Shown here piece after piece: positions 13,881 to 64,000 of a stretch of DNA of 64,000 nucleotides. The notes under the pieces are model-generated. The model did not search any database. It worked only from the letters and a program-made list of their open reading frames with translations, and had not been told where the DNA came from. The DNA is taken from NCBI GenBank assembly GCA_963733055.1, contig CAVTBR010000001.1:1056001-1120000 (forward strand), read 5' to 3'. How positions within the stretch are numbered: position 1 is the first letter of the stretch; each line of letters starts with the position of its first letter. This stretch comes from Candidatus Bathyarchaeota archaeon (lineage in GTDB: Archaea; Thermoproteota; Bathyarchaeia; 40CM-2-53-6). Position numbers and translations under genes: made by a program.

Positions 13881-14036
13881 TCACCATCGTTTGTAGTACT
13901 TTCGGTGTCTACCGCATCGCGTGCAGGTGGCGTCACGGTAGGGTTTGCCGATGGAGGGTTTCTTCCGTTCCCAAGCAAGATCATGTTTCGTTTCGGATTC
14001 GCACTTCTCACAGTAGAGCGTTACCCATTCGACCAA
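13881..14036 (-). CDS. 51-aa zinc-ribbon mini-protein (not in ORF track)
   Basis: TTG start after GGGGATG; MVEWVTLYCEKCESETKHDLAWERKKPSIGKPYRDATCTRCGRHRKYYKRW. Confidence 0.6.
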   Translation of the reverse strand: MVEWVTLYCEKCESETKHDLAWERKKPSIGKPYRDATCTRCGRHRKYYKRW

Positions 14037-14409
14037 GCCCAAACATCCCCTTGGAGTGCGCTAGTTCGCCCCCACGCTTAGGATCCCGCCCGTAACTGTC
14101 TAGTTCCCATAGATTGGAATACTCCGGCGGGAGTTTCTTCAGTTTCTTGATTGAGTGGATCTGGATAGTCGCTTGAGCTAATGGGCCGCTTTTGACGGAG
14201 AACATGTAGGTTGAGGAGGCTTCTCCTCTGCTGCGAATTTCAATCTGCAACCCCTTACAATGAGACTTACCTCGACGTCCAGCAATCAGCAAAGAGTCAT
14301 GGAACCCAGTAAGGCTGAGGTTATGCTTCCTCGCAAGTTGAAGTAGGTAAATCAGATCCCTATCCCGACCCCGAGCAGTCGGAACGTTTCCTATCCCTGG
14401 AATGATGTT
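14008..14409 (-). CDS. Hypothetical protein (start uncertain)
   Basis: Frame stays open about 39 codons upstream of the called start (IPGIGNVPTARGRDRDLIYLLQLARKHNLSL...) with no canonical start codon. Confidence 0.35.
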   Translation of the reverse strand, partial: NIIPGIGNVPTARGRDRDLIYLLQLARKHNLSLTGFHDSLLIAGRRGKSHCKGLQIEIRSRGEASSTYMFSVKSGPLAQATIQIHSIKKLKKLPPEYSNLWELDSYGRDPKRGGELAHSKGMFGLGRMGNALL

Positions 14410-14601
14410 TCAACTCCGCAGGCGGGGCACTACGACGTCATTCGTAATAAAATCGACGGGAATTATGCCCAAGAATCATGCCCGCGCGTGTGAGACCTAC
14501 TTGAACCTTCTGTTTTGCGGAGCCTTCAAAGCTATTATTGAACGGTCCCTTCGCAGTTGGGAAACAAGGTACAGTGCAGTCTCCTGCGGTTGGTGATTTA
14601 G

Positions 14602-16329
14602 CTGGTTGACTTCTGCTCCGAATGCGGGGCTTACATCTCTCCTAAGCAAGGGGGCTGTGCTCATTGCAAACCTCTTCAGGTCAAGGAATTTCAACCGCTC
14701 AACCTCCCAATTGCAAGCCTCACGAATGAGGATGTTCTAAGATACTTCCCATGTGCCACAATGAGAAAGTATCAGCGGGAGATTATTACCCAAACCGTTC
14801 AAGCCTATCAGTCTGGGAAGAAGTGCGTCATCGTAATCGCGCCTACGGGTTTCGGAAAGTCCCTCGTCAACGCCGCATTTACTTCAGTCACCAAGTCGTT
14901 CTACGTCACACCACAGCTAGCCCTCATTGATCAGTTACTCGCGGATCCTAACTTGAGAGGTCGCTTTGTTGAGATTAAGGGCCGCCAAAACTACCAATGC
15001 TACTACAGCCCGCGCCGCGGAGTGCACGTCGGCAAATGTGTGACGGAGGGATATCCTTGCAACGAACGTTTGGATGTCTGCCCATACTGGATGCAGAAAC
15101 ACCTGGCTTCACAATCGCCAAGTATCCTCATGAGCTTAGCCTACCTGATCTTTGAGGGCACGACGGAAGGAAGCGAAACCTACCTTGGAACACGACCCCT
15201 ACTCGTCTTAGATGAGGCCCATAACCTAGAAGAGCAATGCCTCAATCACATCTCCCTAAAATTCACACCCTTCTCAGTCCCATACGAAATCTATCACAAA
15301 CTTCTCCCCAACTTGAAGAATGTGCGTAGCAGGATCGACTTGGATGTCTTCCTAGCCGACGTTGCCGGCTACCTGAAACTAATGCTGGGACGCCTGGAAA
15401 CGAAGAGTGAACAGAACGCGATTTCGCTGATCGAAGCTGAGAATAGACAGCTCATGGAAAGGTTCCTTGAGAACTACAGCCTATTCATGTTCTCAAAATC
15501 CGAATGGGTTTGGAATGTTCGCAACGACCAACTCATCCTCCAACCAGTCTTCGCGAGAGAGTTCATGAAGGATCTGGTTTGGAAGAGAGGCGAGAATTTC
15601 CTGATTTCATCCGCCACTATCCTCGACCCGGATGAATACGTGAAGCTCAACGGCCTAACCGATCTCTTGAAAGAGGACGAGATTGAGATTCTCGAAGCGC
15701 CAAGTACATTCCCACCGGCAAACCGCCCGATAATTGATTCAAGCGTCGGCCCACTTACCATGCAACAATGGGACAACAACATGCCCTTAGCGGTGGCTGC
15801 TGTCGAAAAGATCCTCAACGAAGAGAAGGGTAACGTGGCAATTCATTCGCACTCTTATCGGCATCAACGCGCTCTGGTTGCCCATCTTTCACCGAAATTC
15901 AAAAGCAGGCTCATTGTGCATACAGGCGAGGACCGGGAAGAGAAACTGCAGGAATGGATGAGGTCCCGGGGTAAAGTCTTCGTTTCAGTCGCCTTCAATG
16001 AAGGGCAAGATTGGAAGTATGAAGTATGCTCCGCTCAAATCTTGTTTAAGGTTCCTTTCGCGGACATTGGTGATAGAAGGGTCAAGAGGCGGTTGGAGCT
16101 CGGGCATCGCCAGTGGTACTTGAATCAGGCGATGTTGGAAGTGATTCAAGCGTACGGCCGCGCGGTTAGGGCTGAGGACGATGTTGCGAGGTTCTATGTG
16201 GTCGATGGGAGTTGCACGGAATTGATCAAGAATACGTGGCAGTTCATCCCAGACTGGTTCAAAGCCGCCCTCCCAGCAACCTTCAAGCCGGACCCAATAA
16301 CGAACCCAACTCACGGATCTTCGTCTTAA
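14602..16329 (+). CDS. DinG/XPD-family SF2 helicase with Fe-S motif and N-terminal Zn ribbon (probable CTG start)
   Basis: YFP..TMRKYQ Q-motif region, APTGFGKS, KGRQNYQC...C...C...CPY, LDEAH, SAT, QAYGRAVR; upstream in-frame CSEC...CAHC after an SD-like GGTGAT. Confidence 0.88.
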   Translation: MVDFCSECGAYISPKQGGCAHCKPLQVKEFQPLNLPIASLTNEDVLRYFPCATMRKYQREIITQTVQAYQSGKKCVIVIAPTGFGKSLVNAAFTSVTKSFYVTPQLALIDQLLADPNLRGRFVEIKGRQNYQCYYSPRRGVHVGKCVTEGYPCNERLDVCPYWMQKHLASQSPSILMSLAYLIFEGTTEGSETYLGTRPLLVLDEAHNLEEQCLNHISLKFTPFSVPYEIYHKLLPNLKNVRSRIDLDVFLADVAGYLKLMLGRLETKSEQNAISLIEAENRQLMERFLENYSLFMFSKSEWVWNVRNDQLILQPVFAREFMKDLVWKRGENFLISSATILDPDEYVKLNGLTDLLKEDEIEILEAPSTFPPANRPIIDSSVGPLTMQQWDNNMPLAVAAVEKILNEEKGNVAIHSHSYRHQRALVAHLSPKFKSRLIVHTGEDREEKLQEWMRSRGKVFVSVAFNEGQDWKYEVCSAQILFKVPFADIGDRRVKRRLELGHRQWYLNQAMLEVIQAYGRAVRAEDDVARFYVVDGSCTELIKNTWQFIPDWFKAALPATFKPDPITNPTHGSSS

Positions 16330-54924: not shown

Positions 54925-56973
54925 CTAGGGCTTATGTTTTCTCCGCCTAGTCGAGATTGTCACGATTGCCCAGATCAGTATCCCTATGGGTATTAGTGCG
55001 CCTACGATGCCCGCGATGATCAGCTGTTGCGATATGACTCTCGAAGAAGGAATAACCTTGAGCGCATACGCGTCCATTGCCTGCCCCGCGTTCCCGTAGC
55101 GGTCAACGGCGTTGAAGGAGAACGTGAAGTTTCCCTGCTCGGGGGTCTGGAAGTACATGTGCCAGGTACTGTTGGTGGCATTGTATGCGAGCGGAAGAAA
55201 GAATGTGTACCCCGTAGAGTTTTGGTAGGAACCCGTAACGTTGCCTAAGCTAACGTTGCCGAAAGTGCTTCTTAGACCCGTTCCGTTTGGGTACGTAACA
55301 ATCACGGGAAGGTCTAGGTTGCTGAATGCGCTTAAAGTGGAATTGTTTGATTTGAGCAGAAACATGAACTGCGCGGGGATCAGCTGAGTCGTAGAGTTGA
55401 TGCTCCCCATGTTCCCATATTGATCCTGTTCCGACCAGGTAACGTTGTATGGGCCGAGTGTCGTGTTCTGGTCGAAGTAGTGGGACGCGGACCAGGTTAA
55501 GGTTGTTGAGTTGAAACTGAGGTTCGGTACAATAGTTTGGTTTCCATGCGAAATTACTAGAGTGAGTGTTTTGTTGATTGGGGTTCCGTCTGGATAGGAG
55601 ACTTTGGTTGTGACGTTCAGAGATGTTGTACGTTGAGTCGTTGGAGGCGTGTTCAATTGAAAAACGGGTACGGCCAGCAAGACTTGGAACGTGAATTTGC
55701 CAGATGCCCCGTTACCCCAGGGATCCCGCATGCTCCAAGTACCGGTCCAATTGCCGAGCGTCGCGTTGACGGGGATTTTGAAGGTGGCGACTGGACTGGT
55801 GCCATTCAGTGACATCGTAGTTTTTGTGTGCGTCCCGCCGGGTTGAGTGACGTTGACGGTTACTTGGGTGAGGTTTGCGACGTTTGCTCCGTTATGGTAG
55901 GTGGCCATGAACCCAATCGTGACGTTTTGTGTGCGCTGCCAGGAGGGCTGTGTTTGTATGGTTGGTTGAAGTTTCGCTAAGACTACGCCGAACCCGTTTG
56001 AGGCCACGGGGGAACCCGCACCGCTGTTTCCGTAAGGATCCGTTAGACCTGTTGGGTTGAGTTGGAAGTGGTATGTGGTAATGTTTGCGGATGGAGGCGG
56101 AACCCAGGAGGCTACCCATTCGCCGATCGTAGCGTTGAGAGGAGTCAAAGGTACGCTGATTAGTTTCTGGCCGCCTGAGAGGATATCAACCGTGCCGGTT
56201 ACGTTCGTAACGGCAGATGCGTCTGGGTAAGAGAGGATGTAGGTCGCGTTGACCTGGGCCGTTCTCTCGATTTGGAGCGGCAACGTGTTGTTTGATCTTA
56301 CGCTGATCGTTGCGGGTGCGATAATGAATTCGGAGCTAACAGTTGTAGCTTGGTGCTTGTCGAAGGTCAGCCCGGTTTCGGTTGCTTTGAAGGTTCCGTC
56401 AGGGGCGGATGGCGAGAGTTTGAAAGTGTACTTGTACTCTCCAGTGGCTCCAGCTGTAATGTTCATTGGGAATCCTGGAAAAGTCTTGTTCGCTCCCGCA
56501 ACCTCCAACGCGATTGAGGAATTGGCCGCGAAGCCCCCACCCGCAACTACTACCGTTCTCGTTCTCTCGTATGATTGCGAATCCGTTCCTGAAACCCCGA
56601 AGTGTACCGTGGCTTCTTTTGTATCTGTTATTGGAGAGGTCGATAGGGTGAGATCGTAGGTTCCCGGAGGGTCCGATGAGGCTATGGTCAACTGGACCGG
56701 GGGTACGGAGGCGCCGTTTACGGAGGTGAAATGAACACCCAAGGCGTAGGGTAGGAGTTGCGTTGGTTTTTCGAGCCAGAGGTAATAGGTGACATTTGTC
56801 GCGAGATTCTGAAAGGTAACCCTGACCGTCCCGCCAACCCCCCATATGGGATAAATGGCCTGATCCGTGGAGATTTGCCCAGACACGGCCTTAACATGCT
56901 GACCGCTCCCAAAGAGCATTGTAACATAGATGAATGCAACAAGGCAGGCCGAAATAGCTCTCATTTTCTTCAT
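54925..56973 (-). CDS. Large multi-Ig-domain surface glycoprotein with C-terminal TM anchor
   Basis: Signal peptide, repeated YPD/YPNG...DxYGN.G units, many sequons, TM plus RRRKHK. Confidence 0.8.
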   Translation of the reverse strand: MKKMRAISACLVAFIYVTMLFGSGQHVKAVSGQISTDQAIYPIWGVGGTVRVTFQNLATNVTYYLWLEKPTQLLPYALGVHFTSVNGASVPPVQLTIASSDPPGTYDLTLSTSPITDTKEATVHFGVSGTDSQSYERTRTVVVAGGGFAANSSIALEVAGANKTFPGFPMNITAGATGEYKYTFKLSPSAPDGTFKATETGLTFDKHQATTVSSEFIIAPATISVRSNNTLPLQIERTAQVNATYILSYPDASAVTNVTGTVDILSGGQKLISVPLTPLNATIGEWVASWVPPPSANITTYHFQLNPTGLTDPYGNSGAGSPVASNGFGVVLAKLQPTIQTQPSWQRTQNVTIGFMATYHNGANVANLTQVTVNVTQPGGTHTKTTMSLNGTSPVATFKIPVNATLGNWTGTWSMRDPWGNGASGKFTFQVLLAVPVFQLNTPPTTQRTTSLNVTTKVSYPDGTPINKTLTLVISHGNQTIVPNLSFNSTTLTWSASHYFDQNTTLGPYNVTWSEQDQYGNMGSINSTTQLIPAQFMFLLKSNNSTLSAFSNLDLPVIVTYPNGTGLRSTFGNVSLGNVTGSYQNSTGYTFFLPLAYNATNSTWHMYFQTPEQGNFTFSFNAVDRYGNAGQAMDAYALKVIPSSRVISQQLIIAGIVGALIPIGILIWAIVTISTRRRKHKP

Positions 56974-57037
56974 AGAGACGGCAACGTGCCCGGTGCGGTG
57001 ACGGATTACTTATATTTGCTGTGACTCACGCGATGCA

Positions 57038-58225
57038 ATGAGACGATCACGAGTGCCTTCTAGTGAGCCGGCCGTTGACCCTCTAGGCGACATAGAGGCA
57101 TTGACGCACGAGCTCGCTAGCCTTGAGGTTCAAATGAATTCTCGGAAGATAAGCAACCAAGAGTACGAGACTGCCTCAAAGCGGCTACGAGAGCGAATTT
57201 CCCAATCTGAAGCTATGGCGTATTCGATGGCGAAGACAAACGAATCGATCGCCGAAAAACTGAGAGGTAGGAATTACGGCCTTCCCGAAGTCCAACAGTT
57301 GTGCAATCATTTCATCTACGGTTCAAGAAGGGCGCTTGACCCTGAATTTGGTGCAGACCGTGTTCCCAAGTATTTTGTGGAAGCCGAAGGAGGAGCTAAA
57401 GCTCTCATGGACACCGCTCTTCTTGAGCGGATGGTCGACATTGGCATTCTGAAAGCCTCATTATTCGAGAAGATACTCGTTTGCCCGAAGTGCGGTACGC
57501 CCTCGAACGTTTTTGCGCGATTCAAATGTACGAATTGTGCCTCCATCGATATTGCGATTAACCGGATGCTTGAGCATCTTGCATGCGGAACTATCCATAA
57601 TGAGAAATCGTTTCGCGTCGGCCGTAGCATGATATGCCCGACGTGCAAGAAGTCGCTTCAGAAACCAGAGGAACAGCGGCTCATTGGGCTCGTCTGCACT
57701 TGTAACAAGTGCGGTGCCCACTTCGAGGATCCGGCGCAGAGTTTCTATTGCAGAAAATGCGAAACTGATTTCAACCTTCAAACAGGCATCATCACAGACA
57801 TCCAAGTTTACGATATGAACGAGAAGATAATTGGCGAGATTCGATCACAACTGGGTGTGCCCATAATCGCCGATATGCTCGAAAAGAATAATTTCCAACT
57901 GGACATCCCCGGACGACTTGCTGGAAAGGGAAGGAACGTTCAGTTCTCGATTGTTGCACGAAAGGATGCGTCTGTTGCAGCCATAGATTTGGCTTCGAGC
58001 GATTCCGAGATCTCCGTCGGACCCGTCCTGGAATTCTACGTGAAATTACTGGAGGCAAAGCCGAGCTTTGCTATTTTCGGAGCAATTCCGCGACTGTCGG
58101 AGCAGGCTAAAGATGTTGCCGAGACCAATAGAATATCTGTCGCGGAAGGCGCGACAGCCGAAATACTTGCACGGAATATTCTCGAGGTCTTCGGCGAAGG
58201 CGTGTTTCAAAAGGTGACCAAGTAG
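57038..58225 (+). CDS. TackOD1-type multi-Zn-ribbon protein with N-terminal coiled coil and C-terminal PD-(D/E)XK-like domain
   Basis: CPKC, CTNC, HLAC, CPTC, CNKC, CRKC (5 CxxC + HxxC); restriction-fold-like C-terminus. Confidence 0.75.
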   Translation: MRRSRVPSSEPAVDPLGDIEALTHELASLEVQMNSRKISNQEYETASKRLRERISQSEAMAYSMAKTNESIAEKLRGRNYGLPEVQQLCNHFIYGSRRALDPEFGADRVPKYFVEAEGGAKALMDTALLERMVDIGILKASLFEKILVCPKCGTPSNVFARFKCTNCASIDIAINRMLEHLACGTIHNEKSFRVGRSMICPTCKKSLQKPEEQRLIGLVCTCNKCGAHFEDPAQSFYCRKCETDFNLQTGIITDIQVYDMNEKIIGEIRSQLGVPIIADMLEKNNFQLDIPGRLAGKGRNVQFSIVARKDASVAAIDLASSDSEISVGPVLEFYVKLLEAKPSFAIFGAIPRLSEQAKDVAETNRISVAEGATAEILARNILEVFGEGVFQKVTK

Positions 58226-58236
58226 GAGGCATCAAG

Positions 58237-59733
58237 ATGACTGCAACTCGATTGAGCGAACCAACTCAGTCCCGTGAGGCTGTGGTGGGCCATGTGATCT
58301 TCGATGAGGGTTTAGCGAAGGGTGAGAGCAATTATTGTTACATGGAATGCGAACATTCGAAGCCCCCCCGCGGCGTCTATGTGCAGGTGAATGATCCGTC
58401 GGGCCCAGTTTTTGTTGCTAGAATTGTCGACGGACCCTTCTACCCCAAAGGATCGCGGTCAACCTATTTCGCGTTAGAGTTGAGTGCAATGATAGTGGGC
58501 GGGCGAAAGACAGCCATCCAAAGTCGGCCCCAACCCGAAAGCGCAGTCACGTTACTCGATGCCGAAAGCACCCAAGACTACCTTGGAGCTACAGGCGACT
58601 TGAAACTGGGACGGTTGCTGGGCCAACCTGGAGTCAACGTCTCACTCCACTCAACCTCCCTGGTCAGACATGTTGGCATCTTCGGGACAACTGGAAGCGG
58701 AAAATCAAACACCCTCCAAGTTATCGTCGAACAGACAATTCAAACAGGACGGGGAGTTCTGATCTTCGATATCGAGGGCGAGTACGTCAGGATGAACGAA
58801 CCTACAGGAGAACTAGTCACAACGCTCGCTGAATTCGGCGAGAAACCCGAGGGAGTCAAAGACCTTCGCGTCTACGTACCCGCCCCGAACAGCAGCCTCA
58901 ACCCCGACGCAAAGAAGTTCGGTATTCCCTTCTCAGAGCTAGACTTGGAGATATTCTCCGAAGTTCTAGGTTTAACACCTTTCGAGCGCGTCTATTTCCT
59001 CGACATCGCGAAAAAGACCAAGGACATGTCGGGGAGCTTCCAAGCCTACGCCCTGAGCAGCGTATTGAGTACGTTGAAGAAGCGGATTGAGGGACAGATC
59101 GATAAGGCAACTGTCCCAGAGGTCGTGGCTGAAGCCCACATGGGCCTCTTCACCAAACTCTCCCTCGCAGACCGAACCGGAATCATCGACGCCCCATACG
59201 AGAAGATCACGGCCGAGATGCTGTGCGTTCCGGGAAGAATCTCGGTTATCGATGTAAGCGAATCCTCAGACCTTTTGCGAAACCTCTGCGTTGCCCATTA
59301 CCTTAGGGAAGTTTTCAAGTACAAAACAAACCACCCACAATCACCCCCGCTCATGCTCTTCGTTGAAGAAATTCACACATTCATCAGTAAAGGAAAGAGC
59401 GACCGCATGCTCGCGACAATCTCGATGCTTACCGAGATGGCGCGGCAAGGAAGGAAGAGAGGATTGGGACTAGGAATCGTTTCACAACAGCCAGCCCTTC
59501 TCCCGTCGGAACTGATAGAATTATGCAACACCCGATTCGTTCACAAGTTGGGATCAACCCCGAACCTACAAGCCCTACGCCAATCTACAGGAAACGTATC
59601 AGATTCGTTATGGGCTCTTCTACCCTCCTTGGGGAAGGGTGAAGTGTTGCTTGCATCTCCGGAATTCGAGCAGGCTATCGTAGCGGTGATTAGACCCAAC
59701 AAATCAAAGCGACTTCGAGTTGAGTTTGGATGA
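58237..59733 (+). CDS. HerA/FtsK-family (DUF87) ATPase with HAS-barrel-like N-terminus
   Basis: HVGIFGTTGSGKS, IFDIEGEY, LFVEEIH, ARQGRKRG, SQQP. Confidence 0.88.
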   Translation: MTATRLSEPTQSREAVVGHVIFDEGLAKGESNYCYMECEHSKPPRGVYVQVNDPSGPVFVARIVDGPFYPKGSRSTYFALELSAMIVGGRKTAIQSRPQPESAVTLLDAESTQDYLGATGDLKLGRLLGQPGVNVSLHSTSLVRHVGIFGTTGSGKSNTLQVIVEQTIQTGRGVLIFDIEGEYVRMNEPTGELVTTLAEFGEKPEGVKDLRVYVPAPNSSLNPDAKKFGIPFSELDLEIFSEVLGLTPFERVYFLDIAKKTKDMSGSFQAYALSSVLSTLKKRIEGQIDKATVPEVVAEAHMGLFTKLSLADRTGIIDAPYEKITAEMLCVPGRISVIDVSESSDLLRNLCVAHYLREVFKYKTNHPQSPPLMLFVEEIHTFISKGKSDRMLATISMLTEMARQGRKRGLGLGIVSQQPALLPSELIELCNTRFVHKLGSTPNLQALRQSTGNVSDSLWALLPSLGKGEVLLASPEFEQAIVAVIRPNKSKRLRVEFG

Positions 59734-60502
59734 ATCGAGGAATGGAAGAAGGGTTGAAGAATTGAGTGCGACTGCGCGAGCCAAAACTGGAATTACAGGC
59801 TTAGACGAGGCGCTGGAGGGAGGGCTGCTAAGAAACTACGCCTATTCAATCATAGGCGCCCCAGGGACCGGAAAAACGACTTTGGCTGCACAATTTATTT
59901 TCAGGGGAGCAACGCAGCACGGCGAGAGCGGCGTTTACGCCTCGCTTGAAGAACAACCATTCGTCATAGCCAATAATATGATGCGTTTCAATTTCAACCT
60001 GTTCGACTTGGAAAGCCAAGGAAGACTCGTGCTACTAGACGCGGCCCCATACCAAGAACGGCCTGGTGCAGAGCTGAAGATTCGGGGCGGCGTTCTGGCG
60101 AGCGAGTCGTTCAACTTGGATGGCCTTCTCGGGGCGATAGCGAGCGCGCGAAAGAGGGTAGCGGCGAAGAGATGCGTGATTGACTCCCTGGACGCCATCG
60201 CCGGTGTCTACAAAACCAAGTCCGAGTACAGGTTCAAGCTGCTCCAATTCTTCCGCGCACTCTCCGAACTAGAACTGACAACTCTTGTCCTAACCGACAC
60301 GACGACTCCTACTGTTGAGAAGTTCGGGGTCGAGACGATGCTAGCTAGCGGTTGCTTCGTACTCCACGACGCCGAGAATAAGGACGCTCAGGCTCGGGTC
60401 ATGGAAATCCAGAAGATACGTGGGATCCGAGTTGCGAAGCGGATGCTCGGTTACAGGATTACACCAGACGGCTTCGAGGTTAGCCTACAGACAACAACAT
60501 AG
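59720..60502 (+). CDS. Single-domain KaiC/RecA-superfamily ATPase
   Basis: TGITGLDEALEGG, GAPGTGKTT, YASLEE, VIDSL, IQKIRG. Confidence 0.9.
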   Translation: MSLDESRNGRRVEELSATARAKTGITGLDEALEGGLLRNYAYSIIGAPGTGKTTLAAQFIFRGATQHGESGVYASLEEQPFVIANNMMRFNFNLFDLESQGRLVLLDAAPYQERPGAELKIRGGVLASESFNLDGLLGAIASARKRVAAKRCVIDSLDAIAGVYKTKSEYRFKLLQFFRALSELELTTLVLTDTTTPTVEKFGVETMLASGCFVLHDAENKDAQARVMEIQKIRGIRVAKRMLGYRITPDGFEVSLQTTT

Positions 60503-60504
60503 GG

Positions 60505-61530
60505 TTGAGCGAGTTGGTTGTGGCGAGTGAAGTAAAGGAAACGGCTCCGACTGGAATTTACGCGAAACCTGAGGCACGGAAGCTTCTGGAATTTCTACTC
60601 GAATTCCCTCAAACCATACTGACGGCAACGCTACTTCCCTCGGACGAGTTCAGATTCGAGCAGGTCGAAAAAATCCTAGGCGAAACCTCTACAGATGTCG
60701 TTCAATTGCTTGACGAAATGACCTCCGCCAACGTCCTAATCTCTCAGCTCGTCGACAAGGTCCCCGCCTGTCCGAACTGTGACTCAACGCAGGTGAGTAC
60801 ACGTTATTTCTGCCCGCAATGCGCCTCGCACGATATCAACCGTACACACCTTTTCGAGCACCTGAAGTGCGGTAAAGTGGGGAACGAGGAGAGCTTCAGG
60901 AAAGGGGAGCAGATAATCTGCCCCAAGTGCCAAACCGTACTCCATGATTTCGGGGTGGAGTACAGGGCTATCGGTGTCTGGTATGAATGTAATAAGTGCA
61001 AGAACTCGTTCAACAACCCAAACCACTCACACTTCTGCAGACCAAAACACCACGAGTTCCCAACCGAGCGCGTAACTCTCGTCCCAGTCTACCAATACGA
61101 GCTTAACAGAGACTTGATGGACAGCATCAGGCGAGAAGTGCTCGTTTACGCGGACGCAATCGCGTACCTAGAAAACTTAGGCTTGACCGTGAAAGCACCA
61201 TACTCGCTTGTGGGTAAATCGGGTCAGTCCCATTCTTTCAATATCGTGCTGACCTTGGCAAAGAAAGGTTGGAGGGGCGAAGAAAGAACCGTCGCGATCG
61301 ATGTGATCGTCAAAGGTTACGCAACAGAACCGGACGTTTTCAAGAATTACATCGCCAAAGCGAGAGACGTGAAACCTTCCCAAGCATATCTTATCGCTAC
61401 GCCTGCCTTACCGGAAGACACCAAGGCGCTGCTTAAGGACGCAAAACTACCATTCTTCGAGGGACCATCACTTAGGGAGGCTATGCAAGCCTTCTGCGAC
61501 GGAAGCGTACTGAAGGAACACTTGACCTAA
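60505..61530 (+). CDS. TackOD1-type multi-Zn-ribbon protein with wHTH-like N-terminus and PD-(D/E)XK-like C-terminus
   Basis: CPNC, CPQC, HLKC, CPKC, CNKC, C..KH; GKSGQSHSFNI...AIDV. Confidence 0.75.
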   Translation: MSELVVASEVKETAPTGIYAKPEARKLLEFLLEFPQTILTATLLPSDEFRFEQVEKILGETSTDVVQLLDEMTSANVLISQLVDKVPACPNCDSTQVSTRYFCPQCASHDINRTHLFEHLKCGKVGNEESFRKGEQIICPKCQTVLHDFGVEYRAIGVWYECNKCKNSFNNPNHSHFCRPKHHEFPTERVTLVPVYQYELNRDLMDSIRREVLVYADAIAYLENLGLTVKAPYSLVGKSGQSHSFNIVLTLAKKGWRGEERTVAIDVIVKGYATEPDVFKNYIAKARDVKPSQAYLIATPALPEDTKALLKDAKLPFFEGPSLREAMQAFCDGSVLKEHLT

Positions 61531-61556
61531 GCCAGGTCCCCGGAGGCCAACTGAAG

Positions 61557-62039
61557 ATGTTAGGGCGCAGAGGAGCTTCCGAAATCATAGCCGCTATGCT
61601 ATTGATTCTGATAACCGTAGCGGCGGCAGTTCTATTGTACGCTTACTCCTCAGGCCTCATGGGACGCCTCCAAGGCGCAGCCGTTTCACAACCGTACCTA
61701 GAACAGGTCTCATTAGACTACTACGATTGGACCTCTTGCAACTCCAACCCTTGCCCCCCCTTAACCACCCAGCTGAACCTAACTCTCAGAAACGTTGGAG
61801 CAGCTAAGGTGACGATGTCCGATTTCTACATCTCAGGAACCAGAAATACAACCGCCCTCAAGTTTGGGACCGGATGCAAGTCGCCACAAGGCGTGTTGAA
61901 CGTGCAAGGGACATGCTGGGTGTCTTTCCCGTTACCGACCGGCTTCTCGGCCAGTCCCGGTATCGCCTATACGGTGAAGATCGTATCAAGGGACGGCGCA
62001 ATCTTCTCCTATTCTTGTATCGCTGGACAAGCAGCGTAA
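61557..62039 (+). CDS. Archaeal type IV pilin (class III signal peptide)
   Basis: RRG/ASEIIAAMLLILITVAAAVLLYAY; LRNVG motif. Confidence 0.88.
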   Translation: MLGRRGASEIIAAMLLILITVAAAVLLYAYSSGLMGRLQGAAVSQPYLEQVSLDYYDWTSCNSNPCPPLTTQLNLTLRNVGAAKVTMSDFYISGTRNTTALKFGTGCKSPQGVLNVQGTCWVSFPLPTGFSASPGIAYTVKIVSRDGAIFSYSCIAGQAA

Positions 62040-62157: not shown

Positions 62158-62415
62158 ATGACCCAGGAAAAGCTTCTGCTAAGGCTAAGTGGAACAACTG
62201 CTGAAATTCTTAACGAGCTCGTTCAGAGAGGTTACTTTGGCACAAAATCAGAGGCCCTCCGAGCCGGGATCCTGAAGCTCGGCGAATCTTACGGGCTGAT
62301 CAGGCCTGCAAGCGACTACTGGAAGCAACTCGGCGAAGCGGTCAGCAGAAGTGGCAAGAAACTGTCCCACGCGGAAATCACTCGGGCGTTGAGAAGACTT
62401 GAGCAAGAGGCCTAG
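62158..62415 (+). CDS. Ribbon-helix-helix antitoxin (VapB-like)
   Basis: LNELVQRGYFGTKSEALRAGI. Confidence 0.8.
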   Translation: MTQEKLLLRLSGTTAEILNELVQRGYFGTKSEALRAGILKLGESYGLIRPASDYWKQLGEAVSRSGKKLSHAEITRALRRLEQEA

Positions 62416-62839
62416 CGTGGCCTTCCTCGACTCCAACGTTTTCATTTATGGGCGTCTGGAAGCCTGCAATTCGAGGTTGGTCATACTTCTCGCGCAGCTG
62501 GGAGAATTCGAGGTGGTTGTTTCGGACCTCGTTGTAGAGGAAGTTGAGCGCTTCTTCAGGGAGGAAGTGAGCAGAGAAGCGGCATACCTCGCCAGACGGT
62601 TTATTGAAACCCTTGCCCAGAGAATAGTCCACCGCGAAATCACGTCGCGGAAAATGAGAGAGTTGAAGGGCACAATTAAGGAAAAAGACCTTGAAAACCT
62701 TGTCGCGTTGAGACATCTCAAGCTCGAGTACCTCGTCTCCTTCGACGAAGATTACAAGAAGGCTCGTGTAAGAGAATACATCACCCCGAAGGAGTTTGTA
62801 AAACTGTTCAGCATGGAGCCCTATCCGACCTACTATTGA
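62399..62839 (+). CDS. vapC: PIN-domain toxin (VapC-like)
   Basis: AFLDSNVFI, VVEE, KDL...LVSFDEDY. Confidence 0.85.
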   Translation: MSKRPSVAFLDSNVFIYGRLEACNSRLVILLAQLGEFEVVVSDLVVEEVERFFREEVSREAAYLARRFIETLAQRIVHREITSRKMRELKGTIKEKDLENLVALRHLKLEYLVSFDEDYKKARVREYITPKEFVKLFSMEPYPTYY

Positions 62840-63089: not shown

Positions 63090-64000
63090 TCAAGGAGTGA
63101 ATGTGGCGCAGGGTCGCGCGTAGAGGCCGGCTGTAAATCCGAGAAGTGATGAATATCCGATGCCTGGCGCTGCATTGTTTATGGCTATGCTGCCCACGAA
63201 TATCGCCCCGTTCGGTACTCCGCCGCTGGAAAGACTTTGGTCATACGTTGCCAGTTGAAATAGCGCTATGAATGTGCCATTCATTCCACTGGCTGCGTTT
63301 GGGTTCAAGGGGTCTATTGTTGCGGTCGCACTTAGAGTGGGTGAAGTGACGGGGTAGTATGCCCCGACATAGGGACCGCCGATGAAGTACATCTTTGAAT
63401 TCGACCCTGAGTCGGCTGCCTCTAGAATGATCGTGCCGTGGCTCACTTGGAGAGTGCCTCCGGAGGTATTGTTCAGTCTGACATAAACATAAATGAGTTC
63501 AGAGGGGCTGCTCGCAGCAGCATTCTGGATGATTGTAGGATCAACCCAGGGGTTCACGAAATAGAGGGTCCCCACGGAGCTCGGTCCGGATCGGGGCTCA
63601 GGGGCTTCGGCATGGCATGTAGATGACTGACTACTGTCAACGGGAAGAGAACAATTTGAGGAGGTACACCAAGCGATCTTAGTATCTCCTCTGATTAGGT
63701 TCGGTACAAAGCCGGGGATGGCCAGGGGGTTCGCCGCGAAAGGAAATTGGAAATTGAAGATTCGCCCTCTCGAGGTAACAATCCAGAGAGTGTTAGCGGG
63801 AGAGGAAGGTCCCTGGAGGCCGGAGTTCGGCAAATTGAAGGGTAGCCAGAAACGGACAGTATGGTTAAACTCCCCCGCGTTGAGATAAGAGTCGCTTTGG
63901 CTGAACCTGAAGTTGGCGGGCAAATTCGCTAGAGGGGCTGGTCCCAAAGCACACGGTCCTATGTTTCCTGTTGGAGGAGCAAAAGTGCACCCCGCAGCCC
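63090..64000 (-). CDS. C-terminal part of a secreted/surface (possibly pilin-associated) protein; 5' end outside window
   Basis: Beta-rich Ser/Asn/Gly/Pro sequence with WIVTSRGRIF (resembles pilin C-terminal strands); frame open to the window end. Confidence 0.6.
   Translation of the reverse strand, partial: AAGCTFAPPTGNIGPCALGPAPLANLPANFRFSQSDSYLNAGEFNHTVRFWLPFNLPNSGLQGPSSPANTLWIVTSRGRIFNFQFPFAANPLAIPGFVPNLIRGDTKIAWCTSSNCSLPVDSSQSSTCHAEAPEPRSGPSSVGTLYFVNPWVDPTIIQNAAASSPSELIYVYVRLNNTSGGTLQVSHGTIILEAADSGSNSKMYFIGGPYVGAYYPVTSPTLSATATIDPLNPNAASGMNGTFIALFQLATYDQSLSSGGVPNGAIFVGSIAINNAAPGIGYSSLLGFTAGLYARPCATFTP

Follow-up and report, generated by a model that had tools for sequence, protein, structure and literature searches.

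A HerA-family ATPase encoded with TackOD1 and KaiC genes in the Tad-like type IV pilus locus of a Bathyarchaeia genome

Pilus loci already described in the TACK group of Archaea encode a PilB/VirB11-type ATPase, TadC, pilins, a possible surface protein and a cysteine-rich TackOD1 protein (arCOG06883), with a KaiC-family ATPase encoded close by, and, as far as the accessible parts of those reports extend, the locus described here resembles them in all these features (PMC4858521; PMC5847659). TackOD1 is also used as an output domain of response regulators, according to the accessible part of PMC5847659. A HerA-family ATPase is not named as a pilus-locus component in the accessible parts of either report, PMC4858521 having HerA purely as the name of a superfamily, and their supplements might show one. 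The original prediction that this combination of genes is undescribed consequently fails for TackOD1 and KaiC, whose association with archaeal pilus loci was in print, and stands, supplements aside, for HerA. A DNA-pump-type ATPase of the HerA family, undescribed for such pilus clusters, hints at a pilus-coupled DNA-handling machine.

The window, a 64,000 nt stretch of a Bathyarchaeota contig, has five co-directional ORFs on the + strand that span positions 57038-62039 in the order TackOD1, HerA, KaiC, TackOD1 and pilin. They encode TackA (ORF1, 57038..58225, 395 aa), a HerA-family ATPase (ORF2, 58237..59733, 498 aa), a single-domain KaiC-family ATPase (ORF3, 59720..60502, 260 aa), TackB (ORF4, 60505..61530, 341 aa) and a small type IV pilin with a class III signal peptide (ORF5, 61557..62039, 160 aa). 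The intergenic gaps of 11, -14, 2 and 26 nt and the two GGAGG sequences, located 8 nt 5′ of the HerA ATG and 10 nt 5′ of the pilin ATG, agree with those predicted, with the -14 nt overlap of HerA and KaiC dependent on the TTG start codon of ORF3. As the KaiC orthologues are 245-253 aa long and start ~20-25 nt after HerA, the true KaiC start may be downstream of this annotated TTG. A TATA-box-like element, TTATATTT, at 57010..57017 on the + strand, 20 nt 5′ of the TackA ATG, is a candidate promoter for the array, as read from the sequence. The divergent neighbour of TackA, Surf682 (54925..56973, - strand), is a 682-aa secreted protein in which the hydrophobic segments 3-21 and 645-663 have the appearance of a signal-like segment at the N-terminus and a membrane anchor at the C-terminus. 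Surf682 has a weak match to the MG2 domain (30.5 bits, under the Pfam cut-off of 32.8), and an orthologue is present in 8 of the 9 same-genus loci.

ORF5 matches the NCBIfam archaellin/type IV pilin N-terminal domain (TIGR02537, 29.9 bits; cut-off 20), consistent with the class III signal-peptide pilin that had been predicted, and does not reach the UpsA model (37 of 130 bits, NCBIfam). Its N-terminus reads RRG followed by ASEIIAAMLLIL. This pilin is a paralogue of a second pilin, P160, encoded just past PilB, and its orthologues in relatives adjoin TackB or TackA. The pilus assembly half begins with U407 (63090..64000, - strand, cut by the window end) which, with U416 and U425, makes up three paralogous pilin-like proteins of ~410 aa each; these are followed, at window-equivalent positions 64334-76689 (L038 coordinates are window coordinates minus 62000), by a small pilin, a DOT1-like methyltransferase, TadC_b, TadC_a, PilB, P160 and a prepilin peptidase. 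Past the window end, Pfam recognizes the two TadC genes (T2SSF, 68 and 59.9 bits) and PilB (T2SSE, 126.4 bits), the prepilin peptidase gives a Peptidase_A24 match (44.2 bits) at G000:C1:1132342-1132650, and class III-like 'RRAVS' N-termini are present in pilin-like proteins of the assembly half. PilB, both TadC and the pilin-like genes are 1-10 kb downstream of the five-gene array, and no other strong match to PilB occurs in the genome. The organism has a single Tad-like type IV pilus locus, of which the five genes form the cytoplasmic accessory half. That locus encodes the PilB ATPase, a split TadC platform, a pair of small pilins, the three large pilin-like proteins, a surface protein and the prepilin peptidase. 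The predicted link to a pilus is borne out, both by this position inside a complete locus and by the co-occurrence of HerA with the locus across genomes.

Both ATPases were called correctly from the sequence: ORF2 matches the DUF87/HerA central domain (97.2 bits; Pfam cut-off 23.2), and ORF3 matches PF06745 (171.9 bits; Pfam cut-off 26.6) with a single domain, its closest solved relatives being KaiC CI-type domains and PH0186. The AF2 model of ORF2 (pLDDT 86.2) has a full-length HerA fold with the N-terminal barrel, a complete HerA architecture; the best Foldseek match is S. solfataricus HerA (4d2i, E 2e-30, TM 0.71/0.76), and neither Walker A (GTTGSGKS) nor the EE of Walker B varies among 13 orthologues. 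The scores fall short of every NCBIfam equivalog (HerA_Thermprot, 102.6 of 800 bits; CedD, 97 of 600; CedB, 15.6 of 700), the NCBIfam anti-phage HerA models give 54-57 bits relative to cut-offs of 800-850, and the match to the PADLOC HerA models (98 bits) is one of general family membership only. The orthologues form one clade, present in 19 of the 301 genomes of the class, all from the window's order of Bathyarchaeia, and separate in the tree from CedB, CedD and, as the original prediction required, NurA-linked HerA. With the CedD and CedB scores above, and with true CedD proteins in a clade of their own and a joint clade with the window HerA rejected (p-AU 1e-39), assignment of ORF2 as a Ced protein was rejected. 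ORF2 is a hexameric-translocase-type HerA-family ATPase of a pilus-locus-specific clade and, to our knowledge, all characterised members of the HerA family act on DNA or on pilus/secretion substrates. The absence of NurA from the locus was correctly noted, Mre11 and Rad50 are also absent there, and each of the other three HerA paralogues in the genome is within ~1 kb of a NurA match; given these three HerA-NurA pairs elsewhere, the window HerA is an extra, specialised paralogue. The nearest outgroups of the clade, from Chloroflexi (L086) and Thermoplasmatales (L083), adjoin defence-type genes, one for a helicase like DpdJ/MkoA and one for an OLD/GajA-like ATPase. In a different order of the phylum, another HerA lineage, highly divergent, is encoded 23-35 nt after a TackOD1 gene; in L176 the pair belongs to a pilus locus and KaiC is encoded a few kb upstream, and in L128 the contig ends before any PilB/TadC. 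An exclusive clade of both TackOD1-linked HerA lineages is marginally rejected (p-AU 0.045), which suggests that the HerA-TackOD1 pairing arose twice.

As predicted, the gene set is conserved in related genomes. PilB/TadC are present in 20 of the 23 loci that have a HerA of this clade, the other three being cut by contig ends. In 13 of the 14 loci outside the genus, HerA is immediately preceded by TadC_b in the same orientation, at a distance of -43 to 147 nt, and the conserved unit there is PilB-TadC-TadC-HerA, usually with one TackOD1 gene nearby; the TadC-HerA synteny is stable, at 42-50% identity, over six of the families in the order. Among the genomes searched, the clade HerA is almost always encoded in a pilus locus and is confined to one Bathyarchaeia order. 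KaiC adjoins HerA in all nine same-genus loci and is near HerA in one of 14 loci outside the genus (L035); it is in the window's genus that KaiC and a second TackOD1 copy, TackA, are added to the locus. HerA is present in 9 of the 22 genomes of the genus. An orthologous PilB (at least 73% identity) is present in seven of these nine, the other two having fragmentary contigs, and in none of the 13 genus genomes without HerA, with four of the five checked giving no match whatever. HerA has been gained or lost along with the entire pilus locus and not alone. PilB orthologues at 50-63% identity occur without HerA in other genera, so that the pilus works without HerA.

Both TackOD1 proteins match PF18551 (ORF1, 79.9 bits; ORF4, 125.7 bits; Pfam cut-off 32). 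TackA, with orthologues at 48-62% identity in six relatives, has an N-terminal coiled-coil-like extension (~aa 1-95), the TackOD1 module and a C-terminal restriction-endonuclease-like domain, with no TM segment found. Sequence and alignment confirm the predicted multi-Zn modules, with five CxxC and one HxxC in TackA (CPKC, CTNC, HLAC, CPTC, CNKC, CRKC), and CPNC, CPQC, HLKC, CPKC and CNKC in TackB, in which the C-terminal-most element is reduced to CRPKHH. The TackB AF2 model (pLDDT 87.8, pTM 0.72) has a winged-helix-like N-terminus (16-74; a moderate match, Z ~7-8), a Zn-rich beta domain (78-200) and a restriction-endonuclease-fold C-terminus (202-340). The latter, also predicted, is confirmed by fold, with VIA-align Z-scores of 10.8 to AF1548 and 10.6 to the nuclease domains of Can2 and Cdn1 and a Foldseek match to EndoMS/NucS (E 3e-5); the sequence match is weak, Mrr_cat giving 17 bits on TackA aa 260-395, below the cut-off of 21, and no match on TackB. 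Over 28 sequences C89, C92, C103, C106, H119, C122, C139, C142, C162, C165, C178, F245, D266 and K285 of TackB are invariant. Of 23 TackB-type sequences, 20 have D at position 246, where the window TackB has N (N246), and in TackA-type sequences S or A replaces the first of the acidic residues in the nuclease motif. Both window copies thus lack this residue, the (D/E)xK lysine is unconserved, and the restriction-endonuclease fold of the two proteins, lacking the canonical catalytic motif, is probably non-catalytic. Linkage of TackOD1 genes to pilus loci extends across the phylum and is present in 21-23 of 40 sampled loci, with PilB/TadC operons adjoining TackOD1 in 13-14 of 20 class loci and 8-9 of 20 phylum loci, mostly without HerA. 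A HerA-like gene is absent from 38 of the 40, so the basic role of TackOD1 cannot depend on HerA.

We tentatively propose a pilus-coupled DNA-handling motor, a mechanism that, taken as a whole, we consider a little short of probable. On its cytoplasmic side, the pilus machine would be tied to the handling of DNA. The pilus would draw DNA, or else a partner cell, to the surface, and a HerA hexamer, docked near the PilB/TadC platform, would pump double-stranded DNA. The TackOD1 proteins, with a winged helix, a Zn domain and a probably non-catalytic nuclease fold, would bind the pumped DNA, standing where NurA, Sir2 or DUF4297 stand with other HerA proteins, and/or would set transcription of the pilus locus, and the single-domain KaiC would be an ATP-dependent switch, as ArlH is for the archaellum ATPase ArlI. 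Counted in favour are the membership of the pilus locus, conservation, co-occurrence with PilB, the HerA fold and motifs, the TackOD1 folds and the recurrent HerA-TackOD1 pairing. Counted against are the degenerate nuclease motif, the defence-type genes beside the outgroups, the occurrence of TackOD1 mostly without HerA and of PilB orthologues without HerA, and the fact that no ComEC-like or CedA-like membrane DNA channel is seen among the annotated genes of the locus. With a winged helix and published use as a response-regulator output domain, TackOD1 also fits a plain transcription factor.

The last point belongs equally to an account, possible and on balance unlikely, in which no DNA is transferred and the locus serves regulation and mechanics: the TackOD1 proteins would be transcription factors of the locus or PilB-binding regulators, KaiC an ArlH-like switch of PilB, and HerA a second pilus motor for retraction or pilin extraction, by analogy with PilT beside PilB or VirB4 beside VirB11. 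The frequent position of TackOD1 beside PilB/TadC operons that mostly lack HerA fits this account, as do the published KaiC companions of archaeal pilus loci and the position of HerA directly behind TadC, like a machine subunit. The complete HerA architecture, N-terminal barrel included, speaks against it, as does the repeated pairing of HerA with TackOD1, a nucleic-acid-type partner, which mirrors HerA-nuclease pairs, and we know of no HerA-clade protein that acts on pilins. Archaea, according to the accessible part of PMC4858521, encode no PilT family member, which counts in favour of this account. Improbable, in our view, is a guard derived from defence, with a HerA and nuclease-fold pair, formerly active against viruses or mobile elements, settled in the pilus locus to counter viruses or foreign DNA entering via the pilus and with KaiC sensing the state. 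Pili are the adsorption site of many archaeal viruses, the solved HerA complexes beyond HerA-NurA are the defence systems SIR2-HerA and DUF4297-HerA, the outgroups have defence-type neighbours, and the whole locus is patchy in the genus. The TadC synteny is, however, stable, unlike that of typical defence islands, HerA comes and goes only with the whole pilus locus, PADLOC models have no match to TackA or TackB and recognize HerA only as a family member, and the nuclease motif is degenerate in both TackOD1 copies. The original prediction of a free-standing five-gene operon, a machine in its own right, is scarcely credible. The tight co-directional spacing, the TATA-like element in front and the equal gene order in four further genus genomes (L025, L039, L041, L042) are in its favour, but it is contradicted by three of the nine same-genus loci (L027, L028, L040), in which the HerA-KaiC-TackB block has the opposite orientation and extends the PilB-TadC-pilin array, with HerA 6-15 nt behind pilin-like genes in one long co-directional array from PilB, and with TackA and the pilin on the opposite strand. 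Outside the genus, KaiC is non-adjacent in 13 of 14 loci, there is usually a single TackOD1 gene and the conserved unit is that of PilB, TadC and HerA, and a lone pilin could not be assembled without PilB/TadC, which are encoded solely in this locus.

The proposed DNA motor shares parts with several known systems. The HerA that follows TadC sets the window clade apart from the published TACK-group pilus loci. As in the HerA-NurA end-resection complex (4d2i, 9x1l/9x1m), there is a HerA with the same overall fold and ATPase motifs, and a partner gene with a nuclease-type fold is immediately upstream; unlike that complex, there is no NurA, Mre11 or Rad50, the clade is distinct and the HerA equivalog cut-offs are far off. 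Structural matches of the window HerA to HerA defence systems are strong, and SIR2-HerA/Nezha and DUF4297-HerA also combine a HerA hexamer with an effector that has a nuclease-like or NADase domain, whereas the synteny of the window HerA is with pilus assembly genes. ArlH (FlaH), beside ArlI, is likewise a single-domain KaiC-like ATPase encoded next to a T2SSE-family filament ATPase, but the window KaiC adjoins HerA and TackB, not PilB, and does not reach the ArlH equivalog (40.8 of 215 bits, NCBIfam). Bacterial competence uses a pseudopilus together with a translocase, ComFA, and ComFC, which binds Zn, and type IV secretion uses the ATPases VirB11, VirB4 and VirD4. The likeness is functional only and consists in the combination of a T2SSE-family filament ATPase, a distinct motor for nucleic acids and a DNA-binding helper that binds Zn; ComFA and ComFC have no known homology to HerA and TackOD1. 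In Sulfolobales, the Ced and Ups genes are not known to be together in one locus, whereas the window ATPase is encoded inside the pilus operon. Ced and the Ups pili, which in the accessible part of that report join a HerA/VirB4-superfamily ATPase, with CedD a soluble ATPase, to type IV pili in DNA exchange (bioRxiv 10.1101/2024.09.27.615246), are by analogy the nearest functional precedent for the mechanism proposed here.

The five + strand ORFs predicted at 57038-62039 were recovered as such in the ORF listing, with TackA, HerA, KaiC, TackB and a pilin separated by 11, -14, 2 and 26 nt, and reading the sequence placed GGAGG motifs upstream of two of the start codons, those of HerA and the pilin. 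The overlap of -14 between HerA and KaiC may not be real, given that the KaiC start codon is TTG and that orthologous KaiC proteins (245-253 aa) begin about 20-25 nt downstream of HerA. A TATA-like sequence, TTATATTT, is located 20 nt upstream of the TackA ATG. The domain content also agrees with that originally proposed. Pfam identifies TackOD1 (PF18551, cut-off 32) in ORF1 (79.9 bits) and ORF4 (125.7 bits), a HerA central domain in ORF2 and one KaiC domain in ORF3, and ORF5 has an archaeal pilin N-terminal domain (NCBIfam, 29.9 bits) with a class III-type N-terminus, RRG/ASEII. The cysteine patterns are likewise as first described, with five CxxC plus HxxC complete in TackA and the last CxxC of TackB replaced by CRPKHH. 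No hydrophobic segments were found in the four cytoplasmic proteins, TackA, HerA, KaiC and TackB. The KaiC (PF06745, 171.9 bits) is a one-domain protein of 260 aa, unlike the double-domain clock KaiC, and falls below the equivalog scores of the archaeal filament regulators ArlH (40.8 of 215) and FlaH (PRK06067, 39.9 of 194). A search of sequencing runs listed no RNA run, and one soil-metagenome DNA run contained 0.24 of the sampled words.

The end of the window falls inside the system to which these genes belong. Minus-strand pilus genes run from 63090 into L038, the fetched continuation of the contig, in which positions are window coordinates minus 62000. They begin with three tandem paralogous pilin-like proteins of 407-425 aa (63090-64000 and L038:1090-4883), with RRAVS class III-like N-termini and no Pfam family, that probably serve as minor pilins of large size or as tip adhesins. 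These are followed in L038, on the same strand, by a small pilin grouped with a DOT1-like/class I methyltransferase (175 aa, L038:5611-6138, window-equivalent 67611-68138) with one N-terminal hydrophobic segment, then two TadC genes (T2SSF, 68 and 59.9 bits) and PilB (T2SSE, 126.4 bits), with another pilin next to it. An A24 prepilin peptidase (Peptidase_A24, 44.2 bits) is encoded ~5 kb beyond PilB. Upstream of TackA, a divergent gene encodes an anchored surface protein of 682 aa, also conserved among relatives. Class III-like N-termini are present in five proteins in addition to ORF5, and the archaeal type IV pilus set of T2SSE, T2SSF, class III pilins and A24 peptidase is complete in one locus. 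Profile searches across all 2.88 Mb of the genome revealed no second strong PilB or TadC, so this ~22 kb region is the only type IV pilus locus of the organism, with the five genes forming its cytoplasmic accessory part.

Several features of the locus deserve separate mention. Across the genus, the three pilin-like genes are conserved together. The methyltransferase gene, located between TadC_b and the pilin genes, has an orthologue at the same position in a related locus (L040), and its product could be a pilin-modifying enzyme. TadC_a is a protein of 304-311 aa in relatives, and here is represented by two overlapping ORFs (223 and 119 aa) in different frames that both match the TadC_a profile (G000:C1:1125061-1125982, - strand, window-equivalent 69061-69982), so that this platform gene has either undergone a frameshift or been misassembled. 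Between the pilin and pilin-like genes there is an insertion of an 85-aa gene (62158-62415, +) that overlaps a 146-aa PIN-domain gene (62399-62839, +; PIN 21.9 bits, slightly below the cut-off of 23.6) and resembles a VapBC-type toxin-antitoxin pair. In the related locus L039, only 46 nt separate the pilin (14031-14492) from the first pilin-like gene (14539-15804), leaving no space for such a pair.

HerA orthologues (E <= 1e-80) were identified in 19 of 301 sampled genomes of the class, all within the order to which the window organism belongs (families f1, f2, f5, f8, f9 and f10), with none in the other orders sampled; within the genus, 9 of 22 genomes have one. A scan of species representatives returned 15 HerA loci at >=40% identity, all labelled Bathyarchaeia or Bathyarchaeota except for one Nitrososphaerota and one designated only 'archaeon'; the next matches were at ~25%. 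The 23 distinct loci of the HerA clade that were compared, 9 in the genus and 14 outside, bear out the conservation of the gene neighbourhood on which the original prediction depended. Of these loci, 20 contain PilB and/or TadC, and the remaining three end at contig edges (L009 and L036 with 1-2 nt upstream of HerA, L042 inside TackB). Outside the genus, 13 of the 14 loci encode PilB-TadC_a-TadC_b-HerA in this order on one strand, the gap between TadC_b and HerA ranging from -43 to 147 nt. The fetched DNA contains a TackOD1 gene in all nine genus loci and in 8 of the 14 others; four of the six loci that lack it extend <2.2 kb past the end of HerA. KaiC adjoins HerA in 9/9 genus loci and is nearby in 1/14 outside.

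There are two gene orders in the genus. That of the window is also found in L025, L039, L041 and L042, whereas in L027, L028 and L040 HerA-KaiC-TackB is inverted, with TackA and the pilin on the opposite strand, and the inverted block extends the array PilB-TadC-TadC-methyltransferase-pilin-three pilin-like genes. The bracketing of HerA-KaiC by two Zn proteins, described in the original prediction, is thus a genuine feature of the window but is not fixed, being the product of a three-gene inversion. Orthologous PilB (>=73% identity) is encoded in 7 of the 9 genus genomes with HerA, the other two having HerA on truncated contigs, and in none of the 13 without HerA, indicating that the whole locus is gained or lost as a unit. 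In other genera, PilB homologues at 50-63% identity occur without HerA, which argues that HerA was added to a pilus already functional without it.

The added ATPase belongs to the HerA clade of the FtsK-HerA superfamily (DUF87, PF01935, 97.2 bits against a cut-off of 23.2). Its AF2 model (pLDDT 86.2) has an N-terminal beta-barrel (strands 16-106), a RecA-like core and a helical insert, and Foldseek aligns it with Sulfolobus HerA (4d2i, E 2e-30, TM 0.71/0.76 over 518 columns), with HerA-NurA, SIR2-HerA and DUF4297-HerA complexes as lower-ranked matches. The Walker A (G150-T159, GTTGSGKSNT) and Walker B (E377 E378) motifs are invariant in 13 orthologues. No NCBIfam equivalog was neared (HerA_Thermprot 102.6 of 800, helicase_HerA 90.8 of 970), and the only names given to these proteins in source records are 'DNA helicase HerA-like ATPase' and 'ATP-binding protein'. 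As originally noted, there is no NurA in the pilus locus. The genome has six DUF87 matches and, of the other five, three are within ~1 kb of a NurA match; this HerA, with no adjacent NurA and scores short of the equivalogs, differs from the HerA of HerA-NurA-Mre11-Rad50 repair systems. Complex predictions pairing HerA (alignment A1) with TackA (alignment A3) scored 0.00 in two runs that lacked controls and have no bearing on binding.

In a quick-search tree of 65 superfamily members (LG+G4, SH-aLRT support only), with rows that we chose from 71 matches plus reference loci, several on long branches, the pilus-linked HerA proteins cluster together (19 rows, support 93). Its sister is a pair of non-pilus archaeal proteins, from loci L051 and L052 (support 99), and further out are one Chloroflexi and one Thermoplasmatales protein, both with defence-type neighbour genes. 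CedD, CedB and the Sulfolobales repair HerA are placed elsewhere, on a backbone that is not resolved, and the phylogenetic check called for at the outset sets the window HerA apart from both the repair enzyme and CedB. Its scores also fall short of the Ced models (CedD 97 of 600, CedB 15.6 of 700). True CedD proteins (688 and 657 bits by NCBIfam), which a pattern-based locus scan also picked up from Sulfolobales, form a separate clade. Orthology with CedD was considered and dropped, a joint clade being rejected with p-AU 1e-39 in an AU test for which the group was named only after the tree had been seen. In two further loci, from a Thermoproteota MAG and a Methanomethylicota MAG (L114:5774-11068 and L115:5843-11068), a PilB/VirB11-like ATPase is encoded ~2 kb from a 600-aa ATPase of the clade that contains CedD, and these may be Ced/Ted-like DNA-transfer loci outside the Sulfolobales.

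The TackB model (pLDDT 87.8) has three parts. The helical N-terminus aligns with ArsR/MarR/HxlR winged-helix regulators at moderate Z scores of 7-8, in a range (Z <8) that the aligner cautions can reflect a common arrangement, residues 78-200 are modelled as a Zn-rich beta domain, and the C-terminal alpha/beta domain has a PD-(D/E)xK nuclease fold (Z 10-11). For the latter, VIA-align matched AF1548 (Z 10.8, rmsd 4.2, 116 aligned), Can2 (Z 10.6, rmsd 2.8, 113 aligned) and Bax1 (Z 10.0), and Foldseek matched EndoMS (E 3e-5). The best named matches in the Protein Atlas, at 0.75-0.76 (Mrr_cat, 15%; pPIWI_RE_REase), are leads only and leave the fold result unchanged, and a sequence search of TackB against solved structures gave only chance-level matches (E >=0.49). 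The Zn ligands, F245, D266 and the helix lysine K285 are invariant in 28 aligned TackOD1 sequences. At position 246, that of the first acidic residue of the motif, the window TackB has N and TackA-type sequences have S or A, K270 is not conserved and there is no conserved (D/E)xK across the 28 sequences. The nuclease-fold domain of both window copies is probably without catalytic activity. The restriction-endonuclease-like C-terminus originally proposed thus stands as a fold, but not in its catalytic residues or at the Mrr_cat Pfam threshold of 21 (17 bits for TackA, no match for TackB). Some TackOD1 orthologues do score 25.1 bits with Mrr_cat, or 26.7 of 27 with NA-iREase1, an 'inactive restriction endonuclease' family.

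Across the phylum, 187 of 301 genomes encode TackOD1. Among 40 loci of <=20 kb each, picked non-randomly from the best matches across families, PilB/TadC accompany TackOD1 in 13-14 of the 20 class loci and in 8-9 of the 20 drawn from elsewhere in the phylum, and just two of the 40 include a HerA-like gene. This agrees with two earlier surveys, in which arCOG06883 proteins are mostly from thaumarchaeal pilus loci (PMC4858521; PMC5847659). In ammonia-oxidising archaea, TackOD1 is used by response regulators as an output domain (PMC5847659). Some relatives encode longer TackOD1 proteins, of 482-497 aa (L035:14030-15478, L045:7180-8667, L048:6199-7692), with membrane-anchor-like hydrophobic N-termini that would tether the Zn protein to the membrane beside the pilus machine in some families. 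A third TackOD1 gene (~459 aa) is located outside the window at G000:C1:142839-144218 (-), with no PilB, TadC, HerA or KaiC matches nearby in the genome profile scan. A Pfam Actin match (E 6e-17) identifies an actin-family gene at L032:14875-16149, ~350 nt from the TackOD1 gene of the pilus locus there and on the opposite strand.

HerA and TackOD1 are paired a second time in G062 and G174, two genomes of one genus in another order of the class, in which a HerA-like protein of 569-572 aa on a long branch is encoded 23-35 nt downstream of TackOD1, with KaiC a few kb upstream of the pair. Locus L176 (1482-13395) has KaiC, TackOD1 and the divergent HerA, with a convergent pilin-TadC-TadC-PilB operon downstream, and L128 (4164-10519) has KaiC, a 933-aa secreted protein, TackOD1 and the divergent HerA-like ATPase. 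An exclusive clade of the divergent and pilus-linked HerA proteins was marginally rejected (p-AU 0.045). If the two were recruited independently, this is the best comparative evidence for HerA and TackOD1 cooperating at a pilus.

From the locus membership, co-occurrence, folds and motifs observed, we infer a mechanism of pilus-coupled DNA handling, a reading that we favour tentatively, as plausible rather than probable, because no part of the DNA-translocase architecture is missing from the added motor, because its recurring partner, TackOD1, carries three nucleic-acid-type modules and because the sole functional precedent for a HerA-superfamily ATPase with archaeal pili is in DNA exchange, by Ups pili with Ced, as presented in the abstract of bioRxiv 10.1101/2024.09.27.615246. 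Several observations count against it. No membrane DNA channel was identified among the annotated genes of the locus, in which the membrane proteins are TadC_a, TadC_b, the pilins and the methyltransferase with its one hydrophobic segment; TackOD1 accompanies pilus loci across the phylum without HerA; and the nuclease motif is degenerate. The winged helix and response-regulator fusions would suit a plain transcription factor, and the main rival, possible if somewhat unlikely, has TackOD1 and KaiC as regulators and HerA as a second mechanical motor. The HerA outgroups that look defence-related also speak against DNA handling. A guard module derived from defence is improbable, and no PADLOC model was matched by TackA, TackB or the pilin. 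That the five genes form a strictly stand-alone system, as their compact array might suggest by itself, is very improbable given their place in the pilus locus.

Of the combination originally thought to be new, the type IV pili themselves and the presence of TackOD1 in their loci, with KaiC in the vicinity, were already described in PMC4858521 and PMC5847659, the former also stating that PilT is absent from archaea. In the literature searched, we found no account of a HerA-family ATPase conserved as part of a type IV pilus operon, a negative on which the supplements of these two papers may bear. The models provide a first structural reading of TackOD1, a widespread domain that has so far been without explanation. 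To our knowledge, DNA transport across the archaeal membrane beyond the Sulfolobales Ced system, and the powering of archaeal type IV pili beyond a single assembly ATPase, are mostly not understood, and the pilus-operon HerA with TackOD1 is a concrete, cloneable candidate for one or the other.

The most specific form of the DNA-handling reading, possible but doubtful, is a one-locus archaeal machine for DNA uptake or exchange in one Bathyarchaeia order. HerA would be a double-stranded-DNA pump built into the PilB-TadC-TadC-HerA operon, and the TackOD1 proteins would be its DNA-binding adaptors. If so, the divergent HerA-TackOD1 pair of L176 would have arrived at the same machine independently. 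An organelle dedicated to DNA exchange would affect gene flow in the Bathyarchaeia, which abound in soils and sediments. Such a machine would be functionally equivalent to the Ups pili with Ced, and to the bacterial competence pilus with ComFA/ComFC, but constructed from different parts.
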